From: Candidatus Rariloculaceae bacterium
GTDB taxonomy: Bacteria > Pseudomonadota > Gammaproteobacteria > Steroidobacterales > Rariloculaceae
NCBI GenBank assembly: GCA_965204155.1
Contig: OZ241971.1
Coordinates: 2,304,100 to 2,368,099, forward strand
Length of the DNA: 64,000 nt
Direction: 5' to 3'
In this document: positions 30,602 through 51,580 of the stretch, piece after piece
Numbering within the stretch: the stretch's first letter is position 1
How the letters are laid out: each line of letters opens with the position of its first letter
Translations under genes and position numbers: made by a program
The notes under the pieces: generated by a model
The model's database searches: none
What the model was told of the DNA's origin: nothing
The model's input: the letters and a program-made list of their open reading frames with translations, nothing else

Positions 30602-30630
30602 TTGTACTAGGGGTTTATACTGGCTAGAAT
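30602..30630 (+). promoter_or_regulatory. Sigma70-like promoter upstream of the first autotransporter gene (-35 TTGTAC, 17-nt spacer, -10 TAGAAT)
   Basis: Hexamers at 30602-30607 and 30625-30630 in an AT-rich stretch about 105 nt upstream of ATG 30737. Sequence match only. Confidence 0.4.
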
Positions 30631-30736
30631 CCCGCCGTAATCGACGGTTTGCGTCGGTGGGAACAATCTGAGGTTGTAAGACGCAGCCAAATCGAGGAAA
30701 TTCGTGATGATTAATGACGCTTTAAAGGGGCATCTG

Positions 30737-33786: not shown

Positions 33787-35544
33787 TCAGCCGGCAGTGA
33801 CGGCCTCGCTGCCCACCAGTTCCCAGCCGTGGAACACCAGCGCAAGTCCAATGAAGGCCACGCCCGGAAACTGCCGCCCGAGGCGCTCTTCGGTGAGGTA
33901 GCGCCGCAACTGCCCGGCGGCCTCGCCCCTCAGCGCCTCCAGCCGCGCCCCGTTCGCCGGCTCGCGCCGCTTCAGGTACTTGAGCTCGATCAGGTATCCG
34001 TGGCGCGTGTCCGGGTACCGCGCCAGGTCCGGCTCCAGGGACAGGTCCGCGTAGCCCTTGCCGTATTCGGCCTCGGAACGGAACACGAACCGCTCGCCCA
34101 GGCTCAGGTACGCCGCCAGGAACCCCTGCAACACCTTCTCCCCCGCGATGTAGTCCCGGATGCCGGTGAAACGCTCGATGCGCCCGGCGATCGTCTCGAA
34201 CACCGGCGCCCACTCCCCGCGCAGGGCCATCGCCTTCAACAGCGGCCCCAACTCGAATGCACCCAGCGAAAACAGATCCATATCCTCATACGCGTCGCGC
34301 AGGAAACCGTACAGCAGGTGTCGTACCGTCCGATTCGGGATGCCCAGCGCGGTTTCCTCGCCCACTGCCCCGCGGATGCTCAACAGCCCGAAGAAGTGCA
34401 GCAGCGTGAGGAAGTTGTCGCGCTTGGCCAGGCGCTCCAGCGGGAAGCTGGGCTGCAGCCGGATCTCGGCCCGCTCCTCCCCGGCCAGGTGCCTCAACAG
34501 GTCGAAGTTGCCGTTCAACCGTTTGCCCACCACCAGCAGGTGGCGCAGTTTGGTGTAGTCGATGCGCACATTGACGTCGATCAGGTCGTCCGGCATCGTT
34601 CCCTGCCGGACGGATTGGTTCAGGTAATAGAGCACCATGTCGGTGTTGTACAGGGTAGTTTGCGAGGCCCGCGCGAACCGGTAGCCGTCGTACCACTCCC
34701 GCATAATGTCCAGCGCCTCGTCCACGTCCTGGGCGAACGCGCCCACGTCGCGGTAGCGCTCCAGCACGCCGCGCACCTCGGCCTCGGTGAAGCCCGCCAT
34801 CTCGTTGAAGTGGGGATCGAGGCTGATGTTGTCGCCGATGTTGAAGCCGCTGGTGACGTCGTCCAGCGTGATCGGCGAGACTCCGGTGACGAACAGCCGC
34901 CGCAGCGCGCCCTGCTCGGTCCCCGCCTTCAGCGTGGCGAAGAAGTCGCGGAAAAAACCCGTGCCGTGCGTGAACGACCGGTACGCCTCTTCGCCCTGTT
35001 CGGCCAGGATGGTGTTGGCGAAGTTGTCGTACTCGTCGATCAGCCCGTAAAGCGGGATGCCCTCGTCGACCGCGTGTTCGAACAGGCGCTCAAGCCTCGC
35101 CTCGGCGGATTCGGGCGCGAGGATATGTTCCCGCGCGTTCTCGGGAAACAAGTCCGGATGGCGCCTGACCGAGGCGGCCACCTTGTCGCCGACATGCAGG
35201 TTGAAGTTCTCCTCCAGCCCGTCGAGCGACCGCCTGAACGCCGAGAAATTGAACCGCAGGGTTACGTGGCTGTTGCGTTCCGGCGTAGGGTTCTCGCCGA
35301 TGTGCAGACCGCCGAACAAGGCGTCGAATTCCCCGGCGAAGCGCCGGTCGTAGTAGTGCTCCAGCACCGAGATCCAGCACGACTTGCCGAACCGGCGCGG
35401 GCGGATGAACACGGTAAAGCGGGTCCGCTCCAGTTCCCGAAGGAACCGGGTCTTGTCCACGTACAGATAGCCCTCCCGGCGGATGCTCCGGAAGTCGGCC
35501 AGACCGTAAGGAATGGGAGGGTAATCCACCATGCCGGCAAGCAT
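33787..35544 (-). CDS. AAA-ATPase-like / PD-(D/E)XK nuclease (PDDEXK_9, DUF1703-type) protein, paralog 1
   Basis: N-terminal YGLADFRSIRREGYLYVDKTRF..FIRPRRFGKS (P-loop-like). C-terminal GYADLSLEP...GYLIELKY nuclease-like core. Full-length paralog at 49772-51529. Confidence 0.8.
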   Translation of the reverse strand: MLAGMVDYPPIPYGLADFRSIRREGYLYVDKTRFLRELERTRFTVFIRPRRFGKSCWISVLEHYYDRRFAGEFDALFGGLHIGENPTPERNSHVTLRFNFSAFRRSLDGLEENFNLHVGDKVAASVRRHPDLFPENAREHILAPESAEARLERLFEHAVDEGIPLYGLIDEYDNFANTILAEQGEEAYRSFTHGTGFFRDFFATLKAGTEQGALRRLFVTGVSPITLDDVTSGFNIGDNISLDPHFNEMAGFTEAEVRGVLERYRDVGAFAQDVDEALDIMREWYDGYRFARASQTTLYNTDMVLYYLNQSVRQGTMPDDLIDVNVRIDYTKLRHLLVVGKRLNGNFDLLRHLAGEERAEIRLQPSFPLERLAKRDNFLTLLHFFGLLSIRGAVGEETALGIPNRTVRHLLYGFLRDAYEDMDLFSLGAFELGPLLKAMALRGEWAPVFETIAGRIERFTGIRDYIAGEKVLQGFLAAYLSLGERFVFRSEAEYGKGYADLSLEPDLARYPDTRHGYLIELKYLKRREPANGARLEALRGEAAGQLRRYLTEERLGRQFPGVAFIGLALVFHGWELVGSEAVTAG

Positions 35545-36924: not shown

Positions 36925-37043
36925 GGCCTCGAATCCTCACTGAGCGGGTATTCGCAATGAATTTAACAGGCCATTTGCAACGAATGCAATAGGTCGTTTG
37001 CAACGAATGCAGCAGGGAATTTGCAAAAAAACGTATTGCCCGA

Positions 37044-37487
37044 TCAGCCGCCCGGCGGGCCTGAGGAGAAGTACCAGAACAGCGTCGCGAGCAGTCCCGT
37101 CTGGGTGACCCACCCGGTCAACATCCATCTGGCCAAGCCGACCCTGGCCTTCTCGATCTTGACTTCCAGGTCGGACCTGACCTGCTCGATCTTCAATTCA
37201 AGCTCCAACTTGACTTCCCGGACATCGGACTTGACTTCCCGCAACTCGGCCTGGACCGCGCGGACATCGGCCTGGACTGTGCGAACAGCGGCCTGGACTT
37301 CGCGGACATCGGAATCGGTAGCCAGGATTTCGGACTTGACTGCCAGAACATCGTCCTTGGTGGCCAGGTTGGAGTTGAGCAGATTAACCTGCTCGTCCGC
37401 CAGGGCCTCGGCCTGCGTTTCGGTGAAGCCGCTGGCCGTGAGGTTCTTGACGAACCGGTGGGTGTCGAATGCGATTGCCTCGGACAT
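37044..37487 (-). CDS. DUF1640-family coiled-coil protein with C-terminal TM anchor
   Basis: MSEAIAFDTHRFVKNLTASGFTETQAEALA N-terminus, coiled-coil repeats (DVREVQAAVRTVQADVRAVQAELREVKSDVREVK), TM WMLTGWVTQTGLLATLFWYF. Confidence 0.75.
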   Translation of the reverse strand: MSEAIAFDTHRFVKNLTASGFTETQAEALADEQVNLLNSNLATKDDVLAVKSEILATDSDVREVQAAVRTVQADVRAVQAELREVKSDVREVKLELELKIEQVRSDLEVKIEKARVGLARWMLTGWVTQTGLLATLFWYFSSGPPGG

Positions 37488-37620
37488 GACGCCATCCTAA
37501 CCCCGCCCCGGACCGTCCACAATGCCGCGAATCCGGGCGATTTGGCCAGAAAGTCAGCAAAAACCTTCCTGTTCCGGCATTGCGTTCCCCGAAATGAGCA
37601 GCGGTTATACTTGACCCATG
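37488..37620 (-). repeat. Portable ~133-nt bidirectional promoter/5-prime-UTR module, copy a (full length)
   Basis: Near-identical to 39038-39170. Partial copies at 38644-38663 and 48518-48584. Bounded by ATG codons on both strands. Confidence 0.6.
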
Positions 37621-37675
37621 GCCCGGGTACCGCATTCCCGGCGGAGCACTTGAGACGTTGTATCGGCGAGGAGCC

Positions 37676-37915
37676 TCAACCCGCCTTACCGCCCATGACG
37701 TAGACTTGTTTGTCACGGGTACACTCTGCCGCAAAGGCGTACATCGCCTGCAATGCCTCCCGCCGAAGCTGGGGGTAATTCTCAAGAAGCCGTTCTTCGG
37801 TCCATCCTTCCGCCAACAACCCAAGCAGCAAATCCACGGAGAGTCGCGTCCCGCGGATTACGGGCTTGCCGACCAGTACGGACGGGTCGCTACGGATGTA
37901 ATCATGCCAATTCAA
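37676..37915 (-). CDS. DUF433-domain protein (antitoxin-like)
   Basis: DPSVLVGKPVIRGTRLSVDLLLGLLAEGWTEERLLENYPQLRREAL. A TTG start at 37915 is assumed. The longer ORF-track N-terminus runs through a repeated junction sequence. Confidence 0.5.
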   Translation of the reverse strand: MNWHDYIRSDPSVLVGKPVIRGTRLSVDLLLGLLAEGWTEERLLENYPQLRREALQAMYAFAAECTRDKQVYVMGGKAG

Positions 37916-38040
37916 CGGATCGCCTTCGACGCGAGAATAGCGGTGCAAGCCTATAGCTGGCCATCTCGACGGGCCGATGCGAGCTGCGAACGCTGCAAGT
38001 ACTATAGTGGCAGGCAGACCCAATTGGAACGGAAAGCGCC

Positions 38041-38370
38041 ATGACCGACCCGCTCATCGAGAGAAACCCGGAAATTCTTGGCGGCACCCCGGTGTTTGCC
38101 GGAACGCGGGTGCCTGTGCGCATTCTGATGGAGCACCTTGAAGCGGGTAACCGGCTCGACGAATTTCTCGACGACTTTCCCACCGTGACACGCGAGCAGG
38201 CTATGTCATTGCTGGAACACGCGGAGGAGGCCATCCGCGATCACGACACCGCTGTGTTCGAGCGGCAGGATGCGGAGGCCTTTCTCGACGCCATCGAGAA
38301 TCCGCCCGCGCCGAACGAACGGCTGCGGGCAGCGCTGGAGGAACACACCCGGCGCGTCGATTCCGGCTAA
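38041..38370 (+). CDS. Chimeric small protein: DUF433 domain fused to the C-terminal tail of a DUF1778/RHH-type antitoxin
   Basis: NPEILGGTPVFAGTRVPVRILMEHLEAGNRLDEFLDDFPTVTREQA, followed by FERQDAEAFLDAIENPPAPNERLRAALEEH. May be a decayed fusion. Confidence 0.45.
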   Translation: MTDPLIERNPEILGGTPVFAGTRVPVRILMEHLEAGNRLDEFLDDFPTVTREQAMSLLEHAEEAIRDHDTAVFERQDAEAFLDAIENPPAPNERLRAALEEHTRRVDSG

Positions 38371-38409
38371 TCGAGCGGCTCAGGTCCGGTCAGCGCCATA
38401 TCTCGGTGC

Positions 38410-38643
38410 TCAGGCCTCCCAGGGCGGGGAGACGGTCAGTGTCTTGCGCAGGTTGTCGCCGGGCTCGACCGGCGAATCGAGCATGGCCTTGAACGCATTG
38501 AATCTCGTCTCGTCCACGTTGAACAGGCGCTGATCGAGGAGCACGTACTCGGCCGCCAACGCCTCGGCCTGCGCCTCGGTGAAGCCGCTGGCCGTGAGGT
38601 TCTTGACCAACCGGTGGGTGTCGAATGTGATTGCCTCGGACAT
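38410..38643 (-). pseudogene. Chimera: first ~30 codons of DUF1640 fused to the last ~45 codons of a tacA (DUF1778) antitoxin
   Basis: MSEAITFDTHRLVKNLTASGFTEAQAEALAAE matches CDS 37044-37487. VLLDQRLFNVDETRFNAFKAMLDSPVEPGDNLRKTLTVSPPWEA matches tacA at 49365-49643. The first 9 codons of tacT (MALTGPEPL) follow at about 38374-38400. Confidence 0.55.
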
Positions 38644-38652
38644 GGCGCCATC

Positions 38653-38919
38653 CTAACCCCGCCAGGGATAAGCCCTGGCGTAGACGACGGCCAGCTCGAC
38701 CTGCGTCTCGGAGAGTCGCGGGTAAGCGTCAAGGATTGCTTCGGCGCTGTCGCCGTTGGCGAGCATGGCGGCAATGTCGTGGACCGGGATGCGGGTTCCC
38801 TTGATGCAGGGGACTCCCGATAGAACGCCCTGGTCGCACACGACCGCATCGCGCGCTCTCTCCAATTCAGAAAGTCCCTCGCTCACCTCACCCTCGATGG
38901 TCCGCAAGTCCACCGACAC
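38653..38919 (-). CDS. DUF433-domain protein, probably 5-prime-truncated relative of the MerR-like/DUF433 protein at 44045-44629
   Basis: GVLSGVPCIKGTRIPVHDIAAMLANGDSAEAILDAYPRLSETQVELAVVYARAYPWRG. A GTG start at 38919 is assumed. Confidence 0.45.
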   Translation of the reverse strand: MSVDLRTIEGEVSEGLSELERARDAVVCDQGVLSGVPCIKGTRIPVHDIAAMLANGDSAEAILDAYPRLSETQVELAVVYARAYPWRG

Positions 38920-39037
38920 GTCGCCCGCGCGGGAGTGCTCGAGACGATAGCGCACGATCCGCCTGCGTTTCGGTGAAATCGCTGGCCATGAGGTTCTTGA
39001 CGAACCGGTGAGTGTTGAATGCGATTGCCTCGAACAT
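38888..39037 (-). pseudogene. DUF1640 N-terminal fragment (about 26 codons) running out of frame into the DUF433 gene
   Basis: MFEAIAFNTHRFVKNLMASDFTETQA, then unrelated sequence and a stop. Preceded by promoter-module copy c. Confidence 0.45.
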
Positions 39038-39170
39038 GACGCCATCCTAACCCCGCCCCGGACCGTCCACAATGCCCCGAATCCAGGCGATTTGGCCAGA
39101 AAGTCAGCAAATGCCTTCCTGTTCCGGCCTTGCGTTCCCGGAAATGAGCAGCGGTTATACTTGACCCATG
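39038..39170 (-). repeat. Portable bidirectional promoter/5-prime-UTR module, copy c (full length)
   Basis: Aligns with 37488-37620 along its whole length with a handful of substitutions. Its distal ATG (39168) starts the plus-strand antitoxin-like ORF. Confidence 0.6.
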
Positions 39171-39380
39171 AAAGCGGTCCCGAAGGTTGATCTGACTGAC
39201 CCGTCCGTGGAGCCCACGGACGAGGAGCTGCACGCGCTGATGCTCGCCGTGCAGCAAAGCGTAATCGCGAGAAAGAAGGCGGCGCACGCCGCATTCCGCC
39301 GTCAGATGGACCGTGCGATTTACGGCCGCGACGGCGTCCCCCCGACCGCGTCCGACGACGTGCATGACACTGACCGCTGA
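39168..39380 (+). CDS. Small antitoxin-like protein upstream of a zeta/AAA-type toxin fragment
   Basis: 70-aa ORF whose stop overlaps the start of the P-loop fragment (ATG 39364). No recognisable family. Confidence 0.4.
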   Translation: MKAVPKVDLTDPSVEPTDEELHALMLAVQQSVIARKKAAHAAFRRQMDRAIYGRDGVPPTASDDVHDTDR

Positions 39381-39513
39381 CGCGCAACCCGTTCTCATCG
39401 TTGTAGCCGGCCCGAACGGCGACGGTAAAACCACCCTCACACGGGAGTTCCTTAATCACGAGTGGATCGAGGGCTGCGTCTACGTCAACCCGGACGAGAT
39501 CGCCGCAGCGTAG
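39364..39513 (+). pseudogene. Zeta-toxin/COG4185-like P-loop kinase, truncated after ~49 codons
   Basis: PVLIVVAGPNGDGKTTLTREFLNHEWIEGCVYVNPDEIA (Walker A), then a premature TAG where the sequence changes to repeat/leader DNA. Confidence 0.5.
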
Positions 39514-39668
39514 TTGAAACATTTTCTCGGCGAGCAGGAGCTGAAAACTCGTTCGCCGGATCAGCCGCCTGCCGCGCACAGTCCCGAAAACTTCGCTCGA
39601 TACGATTCAACGCAAGGACTGCTGCTGTTTTTTCGACGGGTTCCGATGAGTCCGTGCGTCCTGCCCTG

Positions 39669-40000
39669 ACACGCATTCCGGAATCAGTCGGGTCCCGGCC
39701 CGCGCAATCTTTCCGTCCGGCGCGCGCGGTACCCCGATTCCACCCGGAAACCCGATGATTGCTTGCTCCCGGCACTTCATGGCGCAGCCACGAAAGGCCT
39801 TTTTCGATAAAGATATCCGCAAGCAAAACGTAACCGGCAGTCGTCCGAAACCTTCCGATTCGAGCACCGAAACGCCGTTTGCGCCCCGGTGCCGCTCCCA
39901 ACCAATGGAGTCTTTTTCTCAGTTTTAACAAACAGTTAGTGGCGCTCCTCATTCGCCTCGTTGCCATATCCATAACCGCACATCATCCGGCGGTCTCCTG
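39669..40000 (+). promoter_or_regulatory. Conserved ~335-nt non-coding leader upstream of TAA2 (copy 1 of 3)
   Basis: Aligns by eye with 45312-45645 and 51710-52045 (acgcattccggaatcagtcgg...ccataaccgcacatcatccggcggtctcctgATG). No reading frame is conserved between copies. Confidence 0.65.
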
Positions 40001-42934
40001 ATGAATAGGGGAACGCTCATGGTTCTTAAACGATTGATACTAACGGCGCTGGGTGCGCTTGGATTGGGCGCGCTGGCGTCAGGATCTGTGTTTGCCCGGG
40101 AGGGCCAGATTCCAGCGCCCAGGATGCACGCGATGAAAAGGGGAACGCTCATGGTTCTTAAACGTTTACTGGTAACGGCGCTTAGCGCGTTGGGGTTGGG
40201 TGCGCTGGCGGCAGGAACAGCCGTTGCTCAAAATACGCTCGACGACGTCGGTACTCAGATTCCGGCGCCGAGGCTGTATGGCGACATCACGTCGTGCGCT
40301 GGCGGGACACTGCCCACCCCTTCGACCGCGCGACAGGCATCTCAGCGATATAAAGCACTTCTGGACAGGGCGTTCGATTCCGACACCGGTACCGATGGCA
40401 TCCAAATGGATTTCACGCAGAATGCCGCGCGGATTGGCACCAATACCGACGGCGCGCTCGCATCCGAGCGCACCGATATTTTGGCTTTGCTCGATGTCGC
40501 AGCTTGCACCGATCCGGTGGCCTCCAATGTCGCTAGAGCCGGCACCTTGTACGGCAACTACATCAGCGCCAGGAACGCGTATAACCGGTTGGAAGAGCCC
40601 GACGCGGACGATGCGGCGACACGCGATGCGGCGCGGATGAAAAAGGAAGACTTTGGCGGGGATGTCTATGACGCGGTCTACGACCAGCGGGCAAGGCTCA
40701 GTGCAGCCACCAGGGCCATCACGGACTACAACAACCTGGTTGGCGCATATGTAGCAGCCACTGAAACTGTCTCCGCAATGGGAGTGCTTGCAGGGCTGAA
40801 AGTGGGCGATGGCACAAATACGGGGTACGACGCTATCAACATCCGTGCCTCGACAACCCGCGTCACCGACTTTGATGCAAATCCCACTCCGGGCGAAGGC
40901 GAAACAGTTAACGGTCTCGTGAACGCCCAGGTGGCCCCGGTCTACGGCAGCGGCAATACAGCGGGATACCGGTCCATTGCCGGCCACGATGCAGCCGATA
41001 GCGCAACGGAAATCACCGAAACTTTGTTAAGGAACGTCGACGCTCCCGGCTCAAGGGCTGCATTCGATGCCGCTGGCACGCTGCAGCTGCATGAGAGTAA
41101 TACGGGCACGAATGCGTTCACCCGATCTTCCGCGAACATTGTCACGCTCGGCAATATCGCCAACGAGTTGTCCAGGTGGCAGACGGCGGTGAACACATTC
41201 CAAACGGCATACGATGACGCAGTAGAAGCGGGGAACCTCGATACGCGCACCGTGGAAGAAAACTTGAGGAGAGCGAAGCTCGGTCGCGACCACGTCCAGA
41301 GCGAACTTGATCGCCTGACGCGAGTCGTGCGGTCGCAGAACCTACCGATTGCAGAAGGCAGTCGACTCTCAATCGGCTTCGGCGACAACGCTGTGATGTA
41401 CGAAAGCGAACGCGTTCTGGTGGATGCATACTTGAGGGCCCGGGGCGATGTCTTGACAAAGGCAACAGCGGTCCGAACAGCCATCGCGAACCTGGACAAC
41501 GCCAACAAGGCTTTGCAGGGCAAACTGAGCGATGCAGACGCTTACCTTAACCAGTTGGTGACGTTGCGCCGATACGAACTGGCCGAAAGGCAAGCCGAGC
41601 AGGAAGAGGCTGGAGGGGACGACGCGCTGCAGTCCTTCAAAGATGCGGTGACGGATGCCAACAGTGCATTGACGAGGGCCCTCAACAATCAAATGACCCA
41701 CCGGGAACTGACCGGGAATGCGGACAGCACCGCGAAAAATCTTCTCGATGCGCTCCTGGAGCCCAAAATGAAGGCGGGCGAGCGTAATGCCGCGGACGAT
41801 GACGGTTCGGCGTTGCTGACAGCCATATCGGCCGTGGATTCCAAGATCGACACATTGGAAGGCCAGCTCACCGACGCGGACGGCAATCCGATCGATCTGT
41901 CGAATCTTGGCAATGCGGAGGAGATCACGGCGCTGTCGACCGATGTCTCCACGAACACGACGGACATCGAAGGACTCGACGGCCGGGTCACGGCGAACGA
42001 GGGAGACATCGACCAGATCGAGGGAGACATCGACCAGATCAACATGGATCTGTACGGGACGACCTCGTCGCAGCATGCCGATGCGTCGGCCTGCGCGGAA
42101 GGCGCCGGCGGCCTGGTGAACATCGCCAACTGCGCCGACGCGCGCAGCCGGCACAATGAGGAAGACATCGCCGACCTGGGTGGCGATATCGAGGCTCTCG
42201 ACGGTCGGGTGGGCGACAACGAGGATGACATCGCGGCCAACACCAAGGCAATCGAGTCCAACGACATGGACATCGCGGCCAACACCGCGGCGATCGAGTC
42301 CAATGACATGGACATCGCGGCCAACACCATGGCGATCGAGTCCAACGACATGGACATCGCGGCCAACACCATGGCGATCGAGTCCAACGACATAGACATC
42401 GCGGCCAACACCATGGCGATCGAGTCCAACGACATGGACATCGCGATGAACGCCGAAGGCATCATGACCAATGCCGGTAACATCATGGCCAATGCCGAAG
42501 CCATCGTGGCGGAAGCGTCGGAGAGAATGGGTGCCGACATGATGCTGGCCGGTGCGATCGAGGAGGCGGTGGCGGCCGGAGCCGCAGCCGACATGGCGCT
42601 GAGCGGACGGATCGGTTCGAACGCCGATGCCATCGCAGCCAACATGAACTCGATCGGTCAGAACGCGAGCGCGATCAGCGACAACCGCAACATGATCGGC
42701 GAGTTGAGCGACGACCTGGACGTGGTCCGGGCCGGTGTGGCGGCTTCCATGGCGCTGGCCGGCATGCCGGCGGTCAACGGCCGCGGCATCGCCATCGGTG
42801 TCGGCTCGTTTGACGGTGAGTCCGCCTTTGCGGTGGGCTTCCAGATCCAGGGCGAGCAGGCATCGTTCAAGGTTGGCGTGACGAGCAGCGGTGGGGCGAC
42901 CGGCGCCTCCGCAGGCGTGGGCTTCAACTTCTAG
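40001..42934 (+). CDS. Trimeric autotransporter adhesin-like protein TAA2 (head type B, stalk type 1, YadA-like anchor) with duplicated signal-peptide region
   Basis: Two consecutive signal peptides (MNRGTLMVLKRLILTALGALGLGALASGSVFA... and MKRGTLMVLKRLLVTALSALGLGALAAGTAVA from ATG 40133). The C-terminal ~330 aa are nearly identical to TAA1 and TAA3. Confidence 0.85.
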   Translation: MNRGTLMVLKRLILTALGALGLGALASGSVFAREGQIPAPRMHAMKRGTLMVLKRLLVTALSALGLGALAAGTAVAQNTLDDVGTQIPAPRLYGDITSCAGGTLPTPSTARQASQRYKALLDRAFDSDTGTDGIQMDFTQNAARIGTNTDGALASERTDILALLDVAACTDPVASNVARAGTLYGNYISARNAYNRLEEPDADDAATRDAARMKKEDFGGDVYDAVYDQRARLSAATRAITDYNNLVGAYVAATETVSAMGVLAGLKVGDGTNTGYDAINIRASTTRVTDFDANPTPGEGETVNGLVNAQVAPVYGSGNTAGYRSIAGHDAADSATEITETLLRNVDAPGSRAAFDAAGTLQLHESNTGTNAFTRSSANIVTLGNIANELSRWQTAVNTFQTAYDDAVEAGNLDTRTVEENLRRAKLGRDHVQSELDRLTRVVRSQNLPIAEGSRLSIGFGDNAVMYESERVLVDAYLRARGDVLTKATAVRTAIANLDNANKALQGKLSDADAYLNQLVTLRRYELAERQAEQEEAGGDDALQSFKDAVTDANSALTRALNNQMTHRELTGNADSTAKNLLDALLEPKMKAGERNAADDDGSALLTAISAVDSKIDTLEGQLTDADGNPIDLSNLGNAEEITALSTDVSTNTTDIEGLDGRVTANEGDIDQIEGDIDQINMDLYGTTSSQHADASACAEGAGGLVNIANCADARSRHNEEDIADLGGDIEALDGRVGDNEDDIAANTKAIESNDMDIAANTAAIESNDMDIAANTMAIESNDMDIAANTMAIESNDIDIAANTMAIESNDMDIAMNAEGIMTNAGNIMANAEAIVAEASERMGADMMLAGAIEEAVAAGAAADMALSGRIGSNADAIAANMNSIGQNASAISDNRNMIGELSDDLDVVRAGVAASMALAGMPAVNGRGIAIGVGSFDGESAFAVGFQIQGEQASFKVGVTSSGGATGASAGVGFNF
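42230..42442 (+). repeat. Five in-frame 42-nt tandem repeats (IAANTxAIESND[MI]D) in the TAA2 stalk
   Basis: Read directly. Confidence 0.85.
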
Positions 42935-42960
42935 CTCGACACCCGCAAGTCCCAAAACAG

Positions 42961-42997
42961 GCCGGCGGTCCGAGAAATCGGGCCGCCGGTTTCGTTT
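42961..42997 (+). terminator. Intrinsic terminator hairpin plus T-tract, copy 2 of 5
   Basis: gccggcggtcc-gagaaatc-gggccgccggt followed by ttcgttt. Confidence 0.6.
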
Positions 42998-43123
42998 GTG
43001 CCGACTTTCCCGATTTTGACGCGCTGGTTACTGGACAAGCTGGCCGGCGCCTCACCGTCACGCGGCCGGGAGCGTGGACCGCGCCGCGGGTCCAACAGCG
43101 ATGTCGATAGCCTGAATTTTCAG

Positions 43124-43315
43124 TTACGGTATTTTGGTTGGGATTCCTGCTTCCTTCAGGATGGCATTGGCGGTATACCGGCTGCGAATCCTGTCAGGAA
43201 CGGATACTGAAATATCCCCGTTGCTCCAGATGTCGTGGCTTCCTCTGGGTCGGCGTTCTATTTTAAATCCCGCGCCTTTCAGAAGTTTCTTTACGGGCCG
43301 TCCGTAGTCCGCCAC
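43124..43315 (-). CDS. hicA: HicA-family mRNA interferase toxin
   Basis: 63 aa; KKLLKGAGFKIERRPRGSHDIW...IPTKIP matches the HicA dsRBD-like fold signature (GSH). Confidence 0.8.
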   Translation of the reverse strand: MADYGRPVKKLLKGAGFKIERRPRGSHDIWSNGDISVSVPDRIRSRYTANAILKEAGIPTKIP

Positions 43316-43327
43316 CAGCCTGCCCTG

Positions 43328-43624
43328 CTAGGCTGCCTCAAGAAGCCCGCTCACGTCAGCGAAAAGCACTCTCGGGTGGGGTGCCCGTTGGCGGTGGGCT
43401 TGTCCGGATGCCTTCTTGAACTTCACATGAAGCTCGGCGTCGGCAACTTGCTGGTCTGTCAGGCCATGATTGCTCCGTAGCAGCCGTTCGCTAACCAACA
43501 ACAACTCGCTGCACATTTCCCTCAGATCGGTTGTTTCGAGAACAAGGCCGCGAATGTCGTCGCTTGTGGCGGTCATAACGCCATCTGATCCGACTCTTAC
43601 GTCTACGGCAAATTCAAAGCTCAT
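43328..43624 (-). CDS. hicB: HicB-like antitoxin (DUF1902-type N-terminal domain)
   Basis: Sits immediately upstream of hicA (12-nt gap). FAVDVRVGSDGVMTATSDDIRGLVLETTDLREMCSELLLVSERLL resembles the DUF1902/HicB N-domain. Confidence 0.6.
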   Translation of the reverse strand: MSFEFAVDVRVGSDGVMTATSDDIRGLVLETTDLREMCSELLLVSERLLRSNHGLTDQQVADAELHVKFKKASGQAHRQRAPHPRVLFADVSGLLEAA

Positions 43625-43756
43625 CTCTGTTTCCTTACTACTGAAAGGACCATTCCAGTGTCAAAAGTATATCAAGACTGACTATACAAACTTGTAGAGT
43701 GTTTGCCGATCCGCAAATCATCACTCTTGCGGCAGATTCTCCCTTGGGACCGGCAC

Positions 43757-43924
43757 GCAGCGGTCAACGGCTGCGGCATCGCCATCGGTGTTGGATCGTA
43801 CGACGATGAGTCCGCCTTCGCGGTGGGCTTCCAGATCCAGGGCGAGCAGGCCTCGTTCAAGGTTGGCATGACGAGCAGCGGTGGGGAGACCGGCGCCTCC
43901 GCGGGCGTGGGCTTCAACTTCTAG
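43757..43924 (+). pseudogene. Remnant of a fifth autotransporter gene: last ~55 codons of the YadA-like anchor
   Basis: AVNGCGIAIGVGSYDDESAFAVGFQIQGEQASFKVGMTSSGGETGASAGVGFNF plus the downstream spacer and terminator, with no passenger or signal peptide upstream. Confidence 0.8.
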
Positions 43925-43950
43925 CTCGACACTCGCAAGTCCCAAAACAA

Positions 43951-43985
43951 GCCGGCAGTCCGGGCAATCGGGCCGCCGGTTTCAT
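43951..43985 (+). terminator. Intrinsic terminator hairpin, copy 3 of 5 (after the anchor remnant)
   Basis: gccggcagtcc-gggcaatc-gggccgccggt followed by ttcat. Confidence 0.55.
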
Positions 43986-44044
43986 ATTGAAGGTTGCGCG
44001 CAGGGGATCGTCAAATTATATTCGCCCCCAGAGAGGAGAGAATT

Positions 44045-44629
44045 ATGCCCATTACGGCCGACTTGACGATTCGCGAAACCGCTGCGTTGTCAGGAGTGTC
44101 CCTGGCGATGATCGAAAAGGCCGTGGAAACGCGCATCCTTCGACCGGTTGGAGGGCCGCCGCGCTTGCGTGGCGGCTCCATGCGTTACCTTCCCGTGCGC
44201 GCCGTTGTTTATTTCCATGCCCTGAAAGCCGCCAACCTTACCGACCTTCCCTTACGCCACAAACGGTCGATTTGGAGTTGCATGACCCAGCTTGAACCCA
44301 TGAAGCTCAAGACCATTGAATTTACACCGGGCGCGATGCTCGACCTTGAGCGGCTTGCCGCCGAGTCGCTGCGTAAGGCCGAAAAGTACCGGGAGAACCG
44401 CGATCGGTACATCACTTCAAATCCGGATATCCTCGGGGGTACGCCCGTGATCGCCGGAACGAGAATTTCGGTGTATTCGGTTCTGGGACGGCTTCAGGAT
44501 GGCGAAACTGCTGACGACATTTCAATGGACTATCCCAAAATTTCCGAGCAAGCAATTGAAACCGCGGAACTCTATGCAAAAGCTCACCCGCTCCGCGGTC
44601 GCCCATCCGGCAGGCCCTGGCATAACTGA
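44045..44629 (+). CDS. MerR-like HTH / DUF433 two-domain protein (antitoxin-like)
   Basis: AGGAGA Shine-Dalgarno before ATG 44045. N-terminal LTIRETAALSGVSLAMIEKAVE HTH. C-terminal NPDILGGTPVIAGTRISVYSVLGRLQDGETADDISMDYPKISEQAIETAELYAKAHP. Confidence 0.65.
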   Translation: MPITADLTIRETAALSGVSLAMIEKAVETRILRPVGGPPRLRGGSMRYLPVRAVVYFHALKAANLTDLPLRHKRSIWSCMTQLEPMKLKTIEFTPGAMLDLERLAAESLRKAEKYRENRDRYITSNPDILGGTPVIAGTRISVYSVLGRLQDGETADDISMDYPKISEQAIETAELYAKAHPLRGRPSGRPWHN

Positions 44630-44655
44630 GTCTTGATCGAAGCGGAAACCGGGCC

Positions 44656-44799
44656 GTGCGCTTGTTTCTCGATGAGTGTCTATCGCCTAGAGTCGCGCAG
44701 GAGTTGAATGCCGAGGGCGTTCACGTTGTTTTGCATCCTCGCGACTTCGGTGGACTGGGCGCCCCCGATGACGATATCGCTGTCGGCAATGCGCAATGA
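44656..44799 (+). pseudogene. DUF5615 (PIN-like) toxin partner of DUF433, truncated after 47 codons
   Basis: VRLFLDECLSPRVAQELNAEGVHVVLHPRDFGGLGAPDDDI, then a premature TGA. GTG start 27 nt after the DUF433 gene. Confidence 0.45.
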
Positions 44800-44806
44800 G
44801 TAGCGG

Positions 44807-44962
44807 CTATATCCACGACGTGCATGACAATGTCGTCGCCCGCTCCAGCAACGCTATGGCCTGAGCGCGAGTGACCGAAGGGAAGTCGTCGAGAAACTCG
44901 TCAAGTCTGTCGCCAGCCTCAAGATATTCCATCATAAGCGGTGCAAGCCTATTGCTGGCCAT
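44807..44962 (-). pseudogene. DUF433 C-terminal fragment behind a portable 33-nt junction
   Basis: MASNRLAPLMMEYLEAGDRLDEFLDDFPSVTRAQAIALLE aligns with residues 29-60 of CDS 38041-38370. Overlaps the parD stop. Confidence 0.4.
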
Positions 44963-45203
44963 CTCGACGGGCTTTCTCTTTGAAACCGTCGAGCAATTCC
45001 TCCGGCGTCCCGGTTACCCAACCACGTTCTTCGACGGAGCGTTCGGCAGACTTCAGCCGGGTTCGGATTGCTTCTGTCTCCCGCGTCTTGCGGATCAGGT
45101 CGTTGAGTACTTCGCTACGGTTGGAAAACTGCTTTCCGTCAATCTGGGCTTGAATCCACCTCTCGTTCGGTTCGCTGAGCGACAGGTCTACCCGTTCGTC
45201 CAT
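44949..45203 (-). CDS. parD: ParD/CopG-type RHH antitoxin, orphan (no parE)
   Basis: MDERVDLSLSEPNERWIQAQIDGKQFSNRSEVLNDLIRKTRETEAIRTRL matches the ParD pattern (..G.Y.S.SEV.R..LR.L...E). ATG 45203 is preceded by AAGGAA. Confidence 0.6.
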   Translation of the reverse strand: MDERVDLSLSEPNERWIQAQIDGKQFSNRSEVLNDLIRKTRETEAIRTRLKSAERSVEERGWVTGTPEELLDGFKEKARRDGQQ

Positions 45204-45311
45204 TTCCTTTGTCTCTCGTAGATCATTGCCGAGTGTGTTCGATTTTACATCCTCATTCACTAGTGACACTCGGATTGCCAAACGGTCGCAAAGTTGAATT
45301 CAGCGGGCGCC

Positions 45312-45645
45312 CGGCACGCATTCCGGAATCAGTCGGATCCCGGTCCGCGCAGTCTTTCCGACTGGCGCACGGGGTACCCCGGTTCCACCCGGAAACCCGA
45401 TGATTGCTTGCTCCCGGTACTTGATGGCGTGGCCATGAACGGACCTTTTTCGATAGGGATATCCGCAAGCAAAACGTAACCGGCAGTCGTCCGGAACCGT
45501 CCGATTCGAGCACCGAAAGGCCGTTCGGGCTCCGGCGCAGACCCCAACCAATGGAGTTTTTTCTCAGTTTTAACAAACAGTTAGTGGCGCTCCTCATTCG
45601 CCTCGTTGCCATATCCATAACCGCACATCACCCGGCGGTCTCCTG
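45312..45645 (+). promoter_or_regulatory. Conserved non-coding leader upstream of TAA3 (copy 2 of 3)
   Basis: See 39669-40000. Confidence 0.65.
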
Positions 45646-48447
45646 ATGAATAGGGGAACGCTCATGGTTCTTAAACGATTGATAGTAACGGCGCTGGGTG
45701 CGCTTGGATTGGGCGCGCTGGCGTCAGGACCTGTGTTTGCCCAGCAGGGTCAGATTCCGGGACCGAAGTTGTATGGCGACATTTCCTCCTGCGCCGGTGG
45801 GATGTTGCCATCCGCTTCTACCGAGGAGGTGGCAAATATGTCCCTTTTGGGGATGGGCGGTCTTCTGGATCAAGCGTTTGATAGCAGTACTGCCAATGGC
45901 ATCCAAATGGATTACACGCAGGATGCCGCTCAGATTGTCCACGGTACGGATACAACCGTCACCGGTTATGACAGCGATCTTCTGGCGTTGCTCGATCTCA
46001 CCGGCACCGGCATCGATTGCGGCAATCCAGTCGCCAGCAATGTCGATGATGCTCGCCAGATTTACGCCGACTACGTTAGCGCCAAGAGAGCGTTTGAGGC
46101 GTTGGAAGAGCCGGACGCGGACGATAGAGCCACATACAATGCTGCACGAATGAAGAAGGACGACTTCGACGGAGATGTCTTTACCACGGCCTACGACCAG
46201 CAGGCAAGGCTCAACGCAGCCAACAAGGCCATTAGAGACTACAACAAGTTGGCTGGTTCAATGGGTACCCTGGCCACGCTGAAGACCAACCAAGGCAGCG
46301 CCGGCGGGTACGATGCGATCAGTGTCAATGTCACAGAGTCGGGTGGCGCATTATCGGGCCGCATCACAGCTGCCGTTCCTACTGGTGATGACGGTAATGC
46401 TCTGACTGGAGATGATCTGGCCGCCGCTCTCGCCGCCCGGGTGGCCCAAGTCTACGGCAGCGGCAATACAGCGGGATTCCGGGCGCTTGCAAGTAGCGGC
46501 GCTGCTCTCGTCGCGACTGACGGTACCATTAGCGATACCTTTGATGGCGCATTCAATGCTGCCGGCGCGATTCAGTATGCCGTGCCTGACCGCCAGGCTG
46601 GCGCAACCACCACCACACTCGCCAGAGCCTCCTCGTCCATTAACACGTTTGGCGCAATCACCACTGAACTGCAAAGGTGGCAGACAGCGGTGGACGCCGC
46701 ACAAAAGATGGTGGATGCCGCAAAAAAGGCGGGGAACCTCGATACGCGTGCGGAGGAAGAGACCCTGAGACGGGCGACACTAGGCCGCGATCACGTCCAG
46801 GACGAACTCGATCGCCTCACGAGAGTCGTGCGGTCGCAGAACCTTGAAATTCTTGAAGCCAATCGAGTCACGATCTCAACGGATCCCGACACAACCGATG
46901 ACGATGTCGTGTACGACAAGGAACGTGACTTGGTGGATGCATACTTGAGCGCCCGGGGCAACGTCGTGGCTGCGGCAGGCAAAGTCCGTTCCGCCGTCAC
47001 CAACCTGGACAACGCCAACAGGGCATTGCAGTCGAAACTGAAGGATCCGGACAGTTACCTCAATCAGTTGGTGACGTTGCGCCAGTACCAGCAGGCGGCA
47101 GCCATGGCTGCGCAGGAAGAGGCTGGCGGAGACGACGCGCTGCAGTCCTTCAAGGACGCGGTGACGGACGCCGGCAAGGCTTTGGCGGCGGCCAGGGAAC
47201 AGCGAATGGCCCATCAGGACCTGACGGCGAATCCGGAAAGCACGACTAGCAAGTTGCTCAATGCGCTGTTGGAGCCGGAAATGGTCGGCGGCAATGACAA
47301 TCCCGCGGACGATGACGGTCAGGCGCTGCTGAATGCGATTTCCAGCGTGGACTCCGATGTCAGCGCCCTGAAGGGCCAGCTCACCGACGCGGAAGGCAAT
47401 CCGATCGATCTGTCGAATCTTGGCAATGCGGACGAGATCATGGCGCTGACGACCGATGTCTCCACCAACACGACGGACATTGAAGGACTCGACGGTCGGG
47501 TGGCGGCGAACGAGGGAGACATCGACCAGATCAACATGGATCTGGACCAGATCAACACGGATCTCTACGGCACGACCTCGTCGCAGCATGCCGATGCGTC
47601 GGCCTGCGCGGACGGCGCCGGCGGCCTGGTGAACATCGCCAACTGCGCCGACGCACGCAGCCGGCACAACGAGGAAGACATCGCCGACCTGGGTGGCGAT
47701 ATCGAGGCTCTCGACGGCCGGGTAGGCGACAACGAGGATGCCATCGCGGCCAACACCAAGGCAATCGAGTCCAATGACATGGACATCGCGGCCAACACCG
47801 CGGCGATCGAGTCCAACGACATGGATATCGCGGCCAACACCATGGCGATCGAGTCCAACGACATGGACATCGCGGCCAACACCGCGGCGATCGAGTCCAA
47901 CGACATGGATATCGCAGCCAACACCATGGCGATCGAGTCCAACGACATGGACATCGCGATGAACGCCGAAGGCATCATGACCAATGCCGGTAACATCATG
48001 ACCAATGCCGAAGCCATCGTGGCGGAAGCGTCGGAGAGAATGGGTGCCGACATGATGCTGGCCGGTGCGATCGAGGAGGCGGTGGCGGCCGGAGCCGCAG
48101 CCGACATGGCGCTGAGCGGACGGATCGGTTCGAATGCCGATGCCATCGCCGCCAACATGAACTCGATCGGTCAGAACGCGAGCGCGATCAGCGACAACCG
48201 CAACATGATCGGCGAGCTGAGCGACGACCTGGACGTGGTCCGGGCCGGTGTGGCCGCCTCCATGGCCCTGGCGGGAATGCCGGCGGTCAACGGTCGCGGC
48301 ATCGCCATCGGCGTGGGCTCGTTCGACGGTGAGTCCGCCTTTGCGGTGGGCTTCCAGATCCAGGGCGAGCAGGCCTCGTTCAAGGTTGGCGTGACGAGCA
48401 GCGGCGGGGCGACGGGCGCCTCCGCAGGCGTGGGCTTCAACTTCTAG
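45646..48447 (+). CDS. Trimeric autotransporter adhesin-like protein TAA3 (head type B-prime, stalk type 1, YadA-like anchor)
   Basis: Signal peptide MNRGTLMVLKRLIVTALGALGLGALASGPVFA. The N-terminal 600 aa are related to TAA2. The C-terminal ~330 aa are nearly identical to TAA1 and TAA2. Confidence 0.85.
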   Translation: MNRGTLMVLKRLIVTALGALGLGALASGPVFAQQGQIPGPKLYGDISSCAGGMLPSASTEEVANMSLLGMGGLLDQAFDSSTANGIQMDYTQDAAQIVHGTDTTVTGYDSDLLALLDLTGTGIDCGNPVASNVDDARQIYADYVSAKRAFEALEEPDADDRATYNAARMKKDDFDGDVFTTAYDQQARLNAANKAIRDYNKLAGSMGTLATLKTNQGSAGGYDAISVNVTESGGALSGRITAAVPTGDDGNALTGDDLAAALAARVAQVYGSGNTAGFRALASSGAALVATDGTISDTFDGAFNAAGAIQYAVPDRQAGATTTTLARASSSINTFGAITTELQRWQTAVDAAQKMVDAAKKAGNLDTRAEEETLRRATLGRDHVQDELDRLTRVVRSQNLEILEANRVTISTDPDTTDDDVVYDKERDLVDAYLSARGNVVAAAGKVRSAVTNLDNANRALQSKLKDPDSYLNQLVTLRQYQQAAAMAAQEEAGGDDALQSFKDAVTDAGKALAAAREQRMAHQDLTANPESTTSKLLNALLEPEMVGGNDNPADDDGQALLNAISSVDSDVSALKGQLTDAEGNPIDLSNLGNADEIMALTTDVSTNTTDIEGLDGRVAANEGDIDQINMDLDQINTDLYGTTSSQHADASACADGAGGLVNIANCADARSRHNEEDIADLGGDIEALDGRVGDNEDAIAANTKAIESNDMDIAANTAAIESNDMDIAANTMAIESNDMDIAANTAAIESNDMDIAANTMAIESNDMDIAMNAEGIMTNAGNIMTNAEAIVAEASERMGADMMLAGAIEEAVAAGAAADMALSGRIGSNADAIAANMNSIGQNASAISDNRNMIGELSDDLDVVRAGVAASMALAGMPAVNGRGIAIGVGSFDGESAFAVGFQIQGEQASFKVGVTSSGGATGASAGVGFNF
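47743..47955 (+). repeat. Five in-frame 42-nt tandem repeats in the TAA3 stalk
   Basis: Read directly. Confidence 0.85.
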
Positions 48448-48473
48448 CCCGACACTCGCAAGTCCCAAAACAA

Positions 48474-48507
48474 GCCGGCGGTCCGAGCAATCGGGCCGCC
48501 GGTTTCC
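48474..48507 (+). terminator. Intrinsic terminator hairpin, copy 4 of 5
   Basis: gccggcggtcc-gagcaatc-gggccgccggt followed by ttcctt. Confidence 0.6.
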
Positions 48508-48517
48508 TTATGTGCCT

Positions 48518-48584
48518 ACTTTCTGGCCAAATCGCCCGGATTCGAAGCGTTGCCGGCGGTCCGGGGCAGGGTTAGGATGGCCTC
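48518..48584 (+). repeat. Portable promoter/5-prime-UTR module, copy d (proximal 67 nt only, plus-strand orientation)
   Basis: ctttctggccaaatcgcccggattcg...ggttaggatggcctcATGTCCG matches the ATG-proximal half of 37488-37620. It abuts the TAA3 terminator. Confidence 0.55.
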
Positions 48585-48612
48585 ATGTCCGCGGCAGAGG
48601 AGATACCGTCTG

Positions 48613-48816
48613 ATGGCCACGAAAGCCAACCGATCTGGCAGAGAACAGAGAGCGATCGAGAACCTCGCCTCGGCTCTACAGGAGTGCTTTAGTGTTGCCA
48701 GAGAGCAGTCTGAAGCCAGAATTGACGAGAAAATGGGCAAGCAGAACGAAACCCTGCGCCTCATCTGGCGTCAAGTAGGCGGTAGCCGCACAAAGCATCT
48801 CCCAATAGACGACTGA
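48613..48816 (+). CDS. Hypothetical small helical protein
   Basis: 67-aa ORF (MATKANRSGREQRAIENLASALQECFSVAREQSEARIDEKMGKQNETLRLIWRQVGG...) downstream of module copy d, but out of frame with the module ATG at 48585. Confidence 0.3.
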   Translation: MATKANRSGREQRAIENLASALQECFSVAREQSEARIDEKMGKQNETLRLIWRQVGGSRTKHLPIDD

Positions 48817-48856
48817 GACATTTTTCTTGCCGCAGCAGCGTCGGGGGTCCGACGCG

Positions 48857-49354
48857 TCAGAGATCAAGCGTCTTTCGCGCTGCCGACAAGGGTAGAGCCA
48901 GAACAAGAGGATCGAGCGGCGAGGGCATGAAACCCAGGTGCCGATAGAATTTGGCGGCTTCCTCATCGAGCGCATGCACGAGCAAGGCTCTGACTCCAAC
49001 GATTTCCGCCGCCTTCATGGTGCGTAGAATCGCATCGCGCATCAGCGCGCGCGCCATTCCCTGGCCCTGATGAGTCCTGTCAACCGCCAATCGCCCAACC
49101 AGCATGACGGGAATCGGGTCGGGCATGTTTCGGCGAACTCTTCCGGGCGAGTCCTTGCGCGCCACCGAACCGGTGCTGAGGCAATAGTAAGCGACCACCA
49201 CGCCGCGGTCGCAAACGACATAGGTCCGTGAACCGCCCTCGCGTTCGTTTTTCAGGGCGTGCGAGATCAACCATGCATCGAGCGTCGGCTGCCCGCTGTG
49301 GAAACCATCCAGCACATGATCTGCTGCGAGCGGCTCAGGCCCGGTCAGCTCCAT
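48857..49354 (-). CDS. tacT: GNAT-family acetyltransferase toxin (TacT-like)
   Basis: 165 aa. LDGFHSGQPTLDAWL, acetyl-CoA motif VDRTHQGQGMARALMRDAI, C-terminal KFYRHLGF. Sits directly downstream of a DUF1778 antitoxin. Confidence 0.85.
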   Translation of the reverse strand: MELTGPEPLAADHVLDGFHSGQPTLDAWLISHALKNEREGGSRTYVVCDRGVVVAYYCLSTGSVARKDSPGRVRRNMPDPIPVMLVGRLAVDRTHQGQGMARALMRDAILRTMKAAEIVGVRALLVHALDEEAAKFYRHLGFMPSPLDPLVLALPLSAARKTLDL

Positions 49355-49364
49355 GTCCCGGTGC

Positions 49365-51529: not shown

Positions 51530-51580
51530 AACAAAGCGGCGTGCCGGGCGAAGCCGGAAAGTAACGAAGCGGGGGACGCG

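Follow-up and report, generated by a model that had tools for sequence, protein, structure and literature searches.

A recycled integrase 5' end and spacer as a probable shared control region of trimeric autotransporter adhesin genes in a Rariloculaceae bacterium

We analyzed a 64,000-nucleotide stretch of Candidatus Rariloculaceae bacterium (the window; positions 2304100-2368099 of a genome consisting of one 5.03-Mb contig, OZ241971.1 in assembly GCA_965204155.1) with a focus on the DNA upstream of its genes for trimeric autotransporter adhesins (TAAs). Seven full-length TAA paralogs, located via the start motif ATGAAWAGGGGAACG, lie within ~62 kb as two opposed blocks: TAA1 to TAA4 on the plus strand within the window and TAA5 to TAA7 on the minus strand just past it. 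Six of these mosaic genes stand behind an upstream module that recurs across species, and the seventh stands behind a different upstream region, the only one found in RNA. We propose, with a probability of roughly 0.55 for the statement as a whole, that the module is a recycled integrase 5' end plus spacer whose proximal ~230 nt act as a DNA-level, sigma-70-independent or activator-dependent control region and not as an RNA fold. The DNA runs holding this stretch are sponge metagenomes. Sponge symbionts are uncultured, and this locus offers a concrete and testable handle on the variation and control of their surface adhesins.

Upstream module and its copies

A block of ~335 nt is repeated at 39669-40000, 45314-45645, and 51713-52045, 5' of TAA2, TAA3, and TAA4, respectively; the copies are 88 to 92% identical and align end to end with two 1-nt indels. 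A 25-nt core pattern occurred three times in the window versus 0.00 times expected from shuffles. When the TAA2 copy was searched against the whole genome with BLAST, the TAA3 copy (91%), the TAA4 copy (88%), and a fourth copy beyond the window, upstream of TAA5 (genome 2378247-2378577, minus strand; 92%), were recovered, and alignment of the 520 nt upstream of all seven genes revealed strongly diverged versions at TAA6 and TAA7. The block is present at six of the seven paralogs in three versions, type A (TAA2 to TAA5), type B (TAA6), and type C (TAA7). An earlier note on this DNA had described it as common to three of four adhesin genes, which is real within the window and extends to six of seven beyond it. 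Counted to the base preceding the second ATG (see below), the type A modules in the window span 39669-40018 (TAA2; 283 bits with the profile R1 described below), 45314-45663 (TAA3), and 51713-52063 (TAA4), all on the plus strand. The ORFs downstream all terminate in a YadA-type anchor, and pairwise BLAST of the TAA genes gives a mosaic: the upstream block and ~100 nt of signal-peptide coding sequence are common, the heads are often unalignable, and the stalk, anchor, and terminator are common again.

The 5' edge of homology is abrupt (C[C/T]G[G/A]CACGCATTCCGG). As the earlier note stated, sequence farther upstream is unrelated among the three window copies; this does not extend to all copies, because TAA3 and TAA5 have ~20 further nt in common, and the TAA2 copy is preceded by 130 nt that match, at ~93% identity counted on the alignment, the sequence flanking a module copy of another species (genome G001).

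The module was also sought beside TAA genes of relatives, a check that the earlier note had proposed. BLAST gave weak matches in three genomes of the same genus, each directly upstream of ATGAAWAGGGGAACG. A sequence-only profile built from 11 copies (R1) gave 29 matches in 7 of 85 family genomes. Of these, this genome accounted for 6, five further species of the genus for 11, 4, 3, 2, and 2, and another genus for a single match that was weak but full length. These matches were aligned (alignment A5). A scan of public genome contigs with the core of block 7 (see below) returned the same sponge gammaproteobacterial metagenome-assembled genomes and chance matches only, and a metagenome-contig scan with a two-block pattern gave no match. 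In G001 (L019, C1:213000-221000; module copy at about 3328-3642), the ORF after the module is only 104 aa long, possibly through truncation or a frameshift in that TAA gene; ~1 kb upstream of this module copy there is another, partial one (model positions 194-364).

Origin of the module

The module combines two parts of different pedigree. Its distal ~107 nt are, on good support, the 5' end of a dead integrase gene on the minus strand, and its proximal ~230 nt, likewise well supported, are the old divergent spacer between that integrase and a TAA gene; we base this reading on the R1 matches, Pfam domains, and relic alignments. The relic (39669-39775, minus strand) covers the first ~36 codons of a P4-type tyrosine integrase, i.e., the N-terminal half of the Arm DNA-binding domain ending in GFGVRV, and reads VPGASNHRVSGWNRGTARAGRKDCAGRDPTDSGMRV from a GTG at 39775. 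R1, which was built from TAA-linked copies, matched the 5' coding DNA of intact integrases in genomes G016 (L051; 52.7 bits, E 1e-15) and G028 (L045), whose ORFs contain Arm-DNA-bind_3, SAM-like, and Phage_integrase domains according to Pfam. Several R1 matches covered model positions 3-125 only and were flanked by integrase genes, with no adjoining TAA gene. In G028, which belongs to another genus, the integrase gene and a TAA gene are arranged head to head, and the entire spacer aligns weakly to the module. By BLASTP, the window relic aligned with residues 57-96 of the intact G016 integrase (VPKTSKRRISSRSVAALRAGPKDYVVWDRDLPGFGVRV) at 15 of 40 identical positions (E 0.005), and the better-preserved relic of G001 aligned with the same residues without gaps at 16 of 37 (E 2e-6).

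No intact frame with a catalytic domain was present on the minus strand. Homology in the window copies stops after ~36 codons, and in other copies the relic frame is shifted or interrupted by a stop. The minus-strand ORF had earlier been set aside on the ground that its frame varies between copies; it is the relic of the integrase N terminus. Long "noncoding leaders" can be old coding sequence, here a dead integrase 5' end that travels with adhesin genes together with the adjoining spacer, which seems to have been retained as their upstream region.

We conclude that the ancestor carried a P4-type tyrosine integrase gene and a TAA gene head to head, ~240 nt apart, an arrangement still intact in the neighboring genus. 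The integrase then decayed, and its first ~36 codons and the whole spacer were copied along at each duplication of the TAA gene. A probable further stretch of integrase relic lies at 39545-39668 (minus strand), for TAA2 only; it is shared with G001, and its final 50 nt also match the region upstream of TAA6. On a weak reading by eye, the 130-nt TAA2 flank may continue the Arm domain in a more decayed state. Just 5' of this extended relic ends a truncated P-loop ORF (39366-39513; ...VVAGPNGDGKTTLTREFL...; zeta-toxin- or AAA-like by eye), which is one among many gene fragments in the islets between the cassettes.

Spread, age, and gene conversion

Three deeply diverged versions of the module coexist in this genome, and its spread by duplication and conversion is well supported. 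Types A, B, and C are mutually 56 to 61% identical in global alignments, versus 45 to 48% for the unrelated upstream region of TAA1 under the same scoring, a baseline level that agrees with the earlier statement that TAA1 lacks the block. Since fourfold-degenerate anchor sites of the same genes are 72 to 89% identical among paralogs, the three types must be old. Type A copies are 85 to 91% identical, and the synonymous sites of their own anchors are 74 to 84% identical; besides, type A modules precede both head types, and leader type and head type are incongruent. Type A was recently copied over four neighboring genes with two head types, by duplication or gene conversion.

A conversion scar is found in TAA2 (40001-40132, plus strand), in which a copy of the junction and 44 codons have been pasted ahead of the resident start. 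Six bases, CACGCG (40127-40132), remain before the second ATGAAAAGGGG; they resemble the ends of leaders in genome G013 (...TTCACGCGATGAAAAGGGG) and are the leftover of an older leader end of the G013 type. A type A module with 44 codons of a TAA3-like gene has been pasted before the resident start, duplicating the signal peptide. TAA2 (40001-40275) encodes two consecutive signal peptides, a scar of gene conversion or illegitimate recombination. The earlier idea that the block is an upstream homology arm for cassette exchange can be retained in part: the identity of type A copies above that of anchor synonymous sites and the TAA2 scar agree with it, but types B and C, at 56 to 61%, are too diverged to pair with type A.

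An orphan anchor remnant (43750-43985) starts with CCGGCACGCA; these ten bases recur at the module's 5' edge. An intact anchor has CCGGCATGCC at that place, and the ten-base match may be deletion microhomology or coincidence. Instead of a shared breakpoint, "ccggcacgca" at 43750 may simply represent a diverged form of the anchor's own CCGGCATGCC.

Conserved blocks and translation start

A weighted conservation profile contains short, near-invariant blocks: GCATTCCGGAAYC; CCYGGAAAC-CGATGRTTGC; AAACGTAAC; CGTCCGG ... TTCGGGC; TTTTTCTC-N-TT-N2-AACA-N5-TTA; CCATAAC; and GGCGG. Block 1 (GCATTCCGGAATC, with the palindrome ATTCCGGAAT; 39673-39685) lies at the 5' edge of the module and hardly varies in any full-length copy. 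At this position intact integrases have CTCCGAAA or CCCCGAAT, so the palindrome is specific to the leader lineage. As a regulon motif, block 1 was discarded, since its 12 further genomic matches all lay in unrelated coding contexts. Block 3 (CCCGGAAACCCGATGATTGCTTGC; 39743-39766), identified from the conservation profile, stands 78 to 85 nt from block 1 and 73 to 76 nt from block 4 (AAAACGTAAC; 39825-39834), the most conserved of the proximal blocks. A candidate upstream ORF from the conserved ATG in block 3 (39755-39928, 57 aa) was dismissed, being only 12 aa long in TAA3 and TAA4 and 25 aa in G013. Blocks 5 and 6 make up an imperfect inverted repeat or hairpin, CGTCCGrA-N9-11-TTCGrGC (39841-39866). 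Block 7 (CTTTTTCTCAGTTTTAACAAACAGTTAG; 39912-39939) is a T-tract followed by AACA-N5-TTA, of which TTTT..TT..AACA.....TTA is invariant; behind the T-tract, TAACAAACAGTTA (39926-39938) fits, as a resemblance only, 12 of the 13 positions of the IHF consensus, WATCAANNNNTTR after an A/T-rich tract. Two small conserved blocks, CCATAACC ... GGCGG (39970-39993), lie between block 7 and the start. In 20+ copies, the other-genus copy included, the distance is 97 to 99 nt from block 4 to block 7, 73 to 77 nt from block 7 to the first ATG, and 170 to 175 nt from block 4 to the first ATG.

The junction GATGAATAGGGGAACGCTCATGGTTCT (40000-40026, plus strand), which is found in all seven paralogs including TAA1, contains a Shine-Dalgarno sequence, AGGGGAA (40007-40013), and the probable true start, the ATG at 40019. 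In the earlier description the block ended at the start codon; conservation actually continues past the first ATG into GATGAAWAGGGGAACGnnnATG, and all copies share GATGAAWAGGGGAACGnnnATGGTTCT almost without change. Even positions that use of the first ATG would make synonymous are fixed (AGG is never CGN and GGA never GGC), and the 3 nt preceding the second ATG vary freely. Because AGGGGAA is invariant at what would be third codon positions and the adjacent 3 nt are variable, the second ATG (40019, 45664, and 52064) is the more likely start, with AGGGGAA as its Shine-Dalgarno sequence, and the first ATG probably belongs to the untranslated region.

Constraint on the proximal part

The 63 columns that differ among the four type A copies showed lower conservation in all other copies than the 261 unchanged columns (Mann-Whitney U test, p=0.007 overall, p=0.005 for the proximal part, and p=0.17 for the integrase relic alone). 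Given the invariant blocks, the spacing held within 2 to 5 nt, and recent substitutions that avoid conserved columns, we conclude that purifying selection acts on the proximal spacer; the distal relic may be no more than a passenger. It could be argued that the entire module is a neutral passenger, similar among genes by recency and gene conversion and not by selection, as the distal third is a dead gene fragment with no significant avoidance of substitutions, the four type A copies are recent or converted, and a function of the module is not demonstrated. We regard this as rather improbable, because types A, B, and C and the copies of five other species are near saturation outside the blocks and have kept the same blocks, the spacing varies within 2 to 5 nt across 170 nt with the other genus included, and the avoidance of conserved columns is significant in the proximal part.

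The module now probably serves as a shared control region. Its proximal part would most likely be the promoter/operator region of the paralogs, with short protein-binding blocks at fixed distances to one another and to the start codon, and transcription would require an activator or an alternative sigma factor. The Shine-Dalgarno sequence for the second ATG would come from the final ~20 nt, and the control region would have been copied and overwritten by gene conversion. A shared regulator-binding region was among the options offered in the earlier note; it is consistent with the invariant blocks, the rigid spacing, and the purifying selection in the proximal 230 nt, and we prefer it.

RNA structure

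Another option had been a long structured 5' untranslated region (UTR), that is, a regulatory RNA (thermosensor, ligand or protein sensor, or attenuator) transcribed with the gene. Rigid length conservation is typical of structured RNAs as well. A cmscan search of 37000-56000 against Rfam 15 (E<=1) detected nothing in any leader copy, and its sole matches were domains of a group II intron (55257-55567) and sX6, the latter by chance. RNAalifold, run on 10 and 16 full-length copies, proposed a pairing between the 5' and 3' ends, a GUAAC/GUUAC helix, and the 39841-39866 hairpin, with few compensatory changes; the consensus was weak, and its small energy was better on the antisense strand, both for the whole module (-66.5 kcal/mol sense versus -75.8 antisense) and for the proximal 205 nt (-24.2 versus -26.5). 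On alignment A5, 80.2% of cells were paired versus 76.9% in shuffles, and covariation measures robust to relatedness, the check named in the earlier note, were not significant (double-change pairs, 23 versus 17.2, reached in 10 of 500 shuffles; pair types, 64 versus 62.4, in 170 of 500). The minimum free energy (MFE) z-score of the window copy was -0.16 for the sense and -0.91 for the antisense strand, although one G013 copy folds better than its shuffles (z = -2.05) with an MFE structure that contains the long-range pairing of 5' CGGAAYCA with UGRUUCUG just past the start codon, a possible element of such an RNA.

A structure model comprising the GUAAC/GUUAC helix and the 39841-39866 hairpin scored 5 to 24 bits (mean, about 15) above a sequence-only model of the same 125 columns on held-out copies. 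This gain is not structural evidence, since the higher information content of the structure model (0.12 bits per position over 123 positions) alone accounts for about 15 bits. The 39841-39866 repeat itself (helix 10) has 80.7% of its cells paired and three pairs with double changes, is by eye perfect (7 to 8 bp) in several held-out copies, and carries compensatory changes and G-U-type pairs that suit a sense-strand hairpin; it is the sole element of the module that could act as DNA or RNA. A weak hairpin followed by a T-run is also seen at 39894-39920, and other upstream types have at least 240 to 290 nt of transcribed upstream sequence in a metatranscriptome. Against this, a third of the supposed RNA would be antisense to dead coding sequence, and no RNA contig covers any leader type at >=80% identity (see below). 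A structured RNA element is not supported by these comparisons, and we consider a long structured 5' UTR quite improbable.

Promoter tests and expression

The upstream region of TAA1 (30440-30737, plus strand), which is unrelated to the module, served as a comparator. It contains sigma-70-like hexamers, TGGAAA-18-TATACT (30592-30621) by scan and TTGTAC-17-TAGAAT (30604-30634) by eye, in accordance with the earlier statement that TAA1 has its own promoter in place of the block. As for the module, the TAA6 copy starts ~45 nt after the TAA7 terminator, and 43 nt separate the TAA5 copy from the start codon (ATG) of a divergent ATPase gene; if the genes behind the module are independently transcribed, these short flanks place the promoter inside it. 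By eye, alternative promoter types were tried and rejected: sigma-54 (GGCACG, located at the 5' edge, and TGGCGC, located past block 7) for wrong spacing or lack of conservation, and the FliA, RpoH, and RpoE/ECF types (AAC-N17-TCCTC and TAACCG-N15-17-TCTGA) for inconsistency.

Sponge metatranscriptome X13 holds TAA transcripts of relatives, and the organism is rare in this sample. At >=80% identity, no X13 contig covered leader types A, B, or C or the G013-C17 leader; the contigs that reach upstream of the start were TAA1 type, or other sequence that shares 30625-30667 with the TAA1 upstream region, for 240 to 290 nt. At 98% identity, three small contigs matched the 30-50 kb region, all of them TAA1 or its upstream region (30472-30678, with 0 differences). 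This evidence is thin and points to TAA1 as the expressed paralog. None of the further RNA runs scanned holds the leader. Two RNA contigs that start at AGGGGAACG were rejected as indications of a transcription start, since a third contig stops precisely 31 nt into that common word; this 31-nt end, and DNA contigs that break there too, identify the contig starts as k=31 graph breaks.

The TAA1-type upstream region (30586-30720) is 80 to 88% conserved in eight other genomes of the genus. It is strong in the sponge metatranscriptome (summed contig depth, 300 to 560), where one 207-nt contig is identical at 30472-30678. Transcripts reach well upstream of the TAA1 sigma-70-like hexamers, and the region might itself constitute a small RNA or a long 5' UTR. 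Metagenome X3 has the TAA1-type stretch joined to other downstream sequences.

Several observations weigh against the module as a control region. Consensus scans of the three window copies for a sigma-70 pair with 16- to 18-nt spacing gave no match, and in a position weight matrix scan of 23 aligned copies the best sense-strand column had a mean of 1.9 bits, 1 of 23 copies reached >=6 bits, and no conserved candidate emerged; both scans agree with the earlier failure to see a convincing sigma-70 -35/-10 pair in the leader. Neither a transcription start or promoter within the module nor a candidate regulator of it was found in this analysis, and the IHF-like and repeated GTAACC motifs are resemblances only. 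Nothing from the module, TAA2, TAA3, or the islets between them was found in X13 at 98% identity, the rarity of the organism in that sample applying here too, and the genes behind the module may be silent instead of regulated. The favorable fold of the G013 copy and the compensatory changes of the 39841-39866 repeat, both described above, belong on the same side.

Recombination at the locus

Alternatively, the module may be of use mainly in recombination, with the module, the junction, and the 3' stalk, anchor, and terminator as targets for exchange of heads and promoters, by gene conversion or by recombinases adjoining TAA7. In the strong form of this explanation, all module-linked genes would be silent and expression would be confined to the gene behind the single TAA1-type promoter, as in the vpma, vsp, and vsa systems of Mycoplasma. 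The cassettes are indeed mosaic, with conserved 5' and 3' ends and unalignable heads; leader and head types are incongruent, TAA2 bears a conversion scar, and the paralogs form two opposed blocks. Two tandem tyrosine integrase genes lie divergently beside TAA7 (genome C1:2392488-2394732; L071 489-2733). The first (2392488-2393525; 346 aa) lacks the Arm domain and has SAM-like and catalytic domains, and the second (435 aa) is a full-length P4-type integrase; no tRNA gene was present within the 4 kb examined. The Arm-less frame is open in two of three species, including that of G006 (349 aa), whereas in G014 it is truncated to 300 aa; Pfam domains were assessed for two of these three copies.

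The lack of a sigma-70 promoter in the module would also agree with this explanation, as would the TAA1-type upstream region, the only one seen in RNA. That region is present in 9 of 17 genomes of the genus and single copy in 8 of the 9, in genomes that hold up to 10 TAA starts, and it is joined to differing head types in different species (in G014, to the head type found here behind types A and B). This distribution fits a unique expression site but fits equally an ancestral core gene whose head was often replaced by conversion; in G011 the TAA1 type is the only upstream type. Moreover, all 20+ complete copies of the module have the same orientation relative to the gene, types A, B, and C are too diverged for mutual homologous recombination, and the fixed spacing of blocks 4 to 7 would be left unexplained. 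P4-type integrases usually serve island integration and not switching. No rearranged junction was seen in the DNA data, which consist of k=31 contigs that are interrupted at the shared 36-nt junction and do not resolve rearrangements there. On balance, we think it unlikely that the module is chiefly a recombination substrate, and a shared DNA-level control region remains our preferred reading.

Neighboring genes

Three paralogous genes encoding AAA-ATPase_like and PDDEXK_9 domains are interspersed among the TAA genes (33787-35544 and 49772-51529 in the window; L005 10622-12379), and two of them are divergent neighbors of module copies (TAA4 and TAA5). In G013, a module fragment (C26) is flanked by the end of a similar gene. 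A group II intron (55257-56987) lies directly 3' of the TAA4 terminator; it matches the Rfam D1-D4 domains (128 and 62 bits), and its ORF (55599-56987) has RVT_1 and GIIM domains.

Comparison with known systems

The invertible promoter switch fimS of Escherichia coli type 1 fimbriae resembles the module as an element of roughly 300 to 350 bp before an adhesin gene, with an IHF-like motif inside, tyrosine recombinases nearby, and short inverted repeats at its ends (here TTCCGGAAYCA ... TGRTTCTGAAA, 9 of 11 positions complementary). However, the right arm here lies within coding sequence and is present also at TAA1, which has no module. The two orientations expected of a fimS-type switch were not found, as all complete copies in seven genomes have the same orientation relative to the gene, and the k=31 DNA contigs contained no strand-changing joints. 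For the same reasons (a coding right arm, also at TAA1, and a single orientation), we rejected a miniature inverted-repeat transposable element or invertible element bounded by these repeats.

The closest parallel to the recombination explanation is the vpma locus of Mycoplasma agalactiae, in which genes with a conserved 5' UTR and signal peptide are accompanied by an adjacent xer1 gene and a unique promoter (PMC2268961). As in vpma and in vsp of Mycoplasma bovis, the paralogs share an upstream and signal-peptide region before variable bodies (here six of seven carry the module), the locus is bordered by a tyrosine recombinase gene, and one upstream region is distinct and, here putatively, promoter bearing (PMC2268961). 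In Mycoplasma, however, inversions at a 21- to 72-nt site in the 5' UTR were shown experimentally, whereas the k=31 contigs available here revealed no rearrangement; the recombinases here are P4-type integrases, and the conserved region is partly a dead integrase gene in three deeply diverged versions. It is a long shot, by analogy, that the seven adhesin genes form a vpma/vsp-like expression-site system in a Gram-negative sponge symbiont, in which expression would be limited to the gene at the TAA1 promoter, silent copies would be marked by the modules, the Arm-less recombinase would swap promoter and coding sequence at the ~36-nt junction or within the module, and the block spacing would reflect a recombination complex from the attachment-site region of the integrase. 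If true, such a recombinase switch would extend expression-site antigenic variation to trimeric autotransporters.

Among TAA loci, vomp of Bartonella quintana and badA of Bartonella henselae are likewise tandem arrays with similar ends and variable middles, in which recombination or deletion within the array alters the expressed product (PMC3430587, citing Zhang et al. 2004). The mosaic of common ends and unalignable heads described above is of the same kind. Regulation of vomp and badA has been described via other factors, and to our knowledge no conserved integrase-derived upstream module occurs in these loci.

The module also behaves in part like ordinary co-duplicated promoters, in which the upstream region travels with the gene, a truncated neighbor is dragged along, and adjacent copies are homogenized by gene conversion. 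It differs from them in that it is still recognizable and rigidly spaced across species and in another genus after near-saturation elsewhere, and this persistence with rigid spacing despite near-saturated divergence speaks for functional retention of the proximal part. A conserved upstream region in a multigene surface-protein family is already a known thing; the unusual feature of this one is its pedigree.

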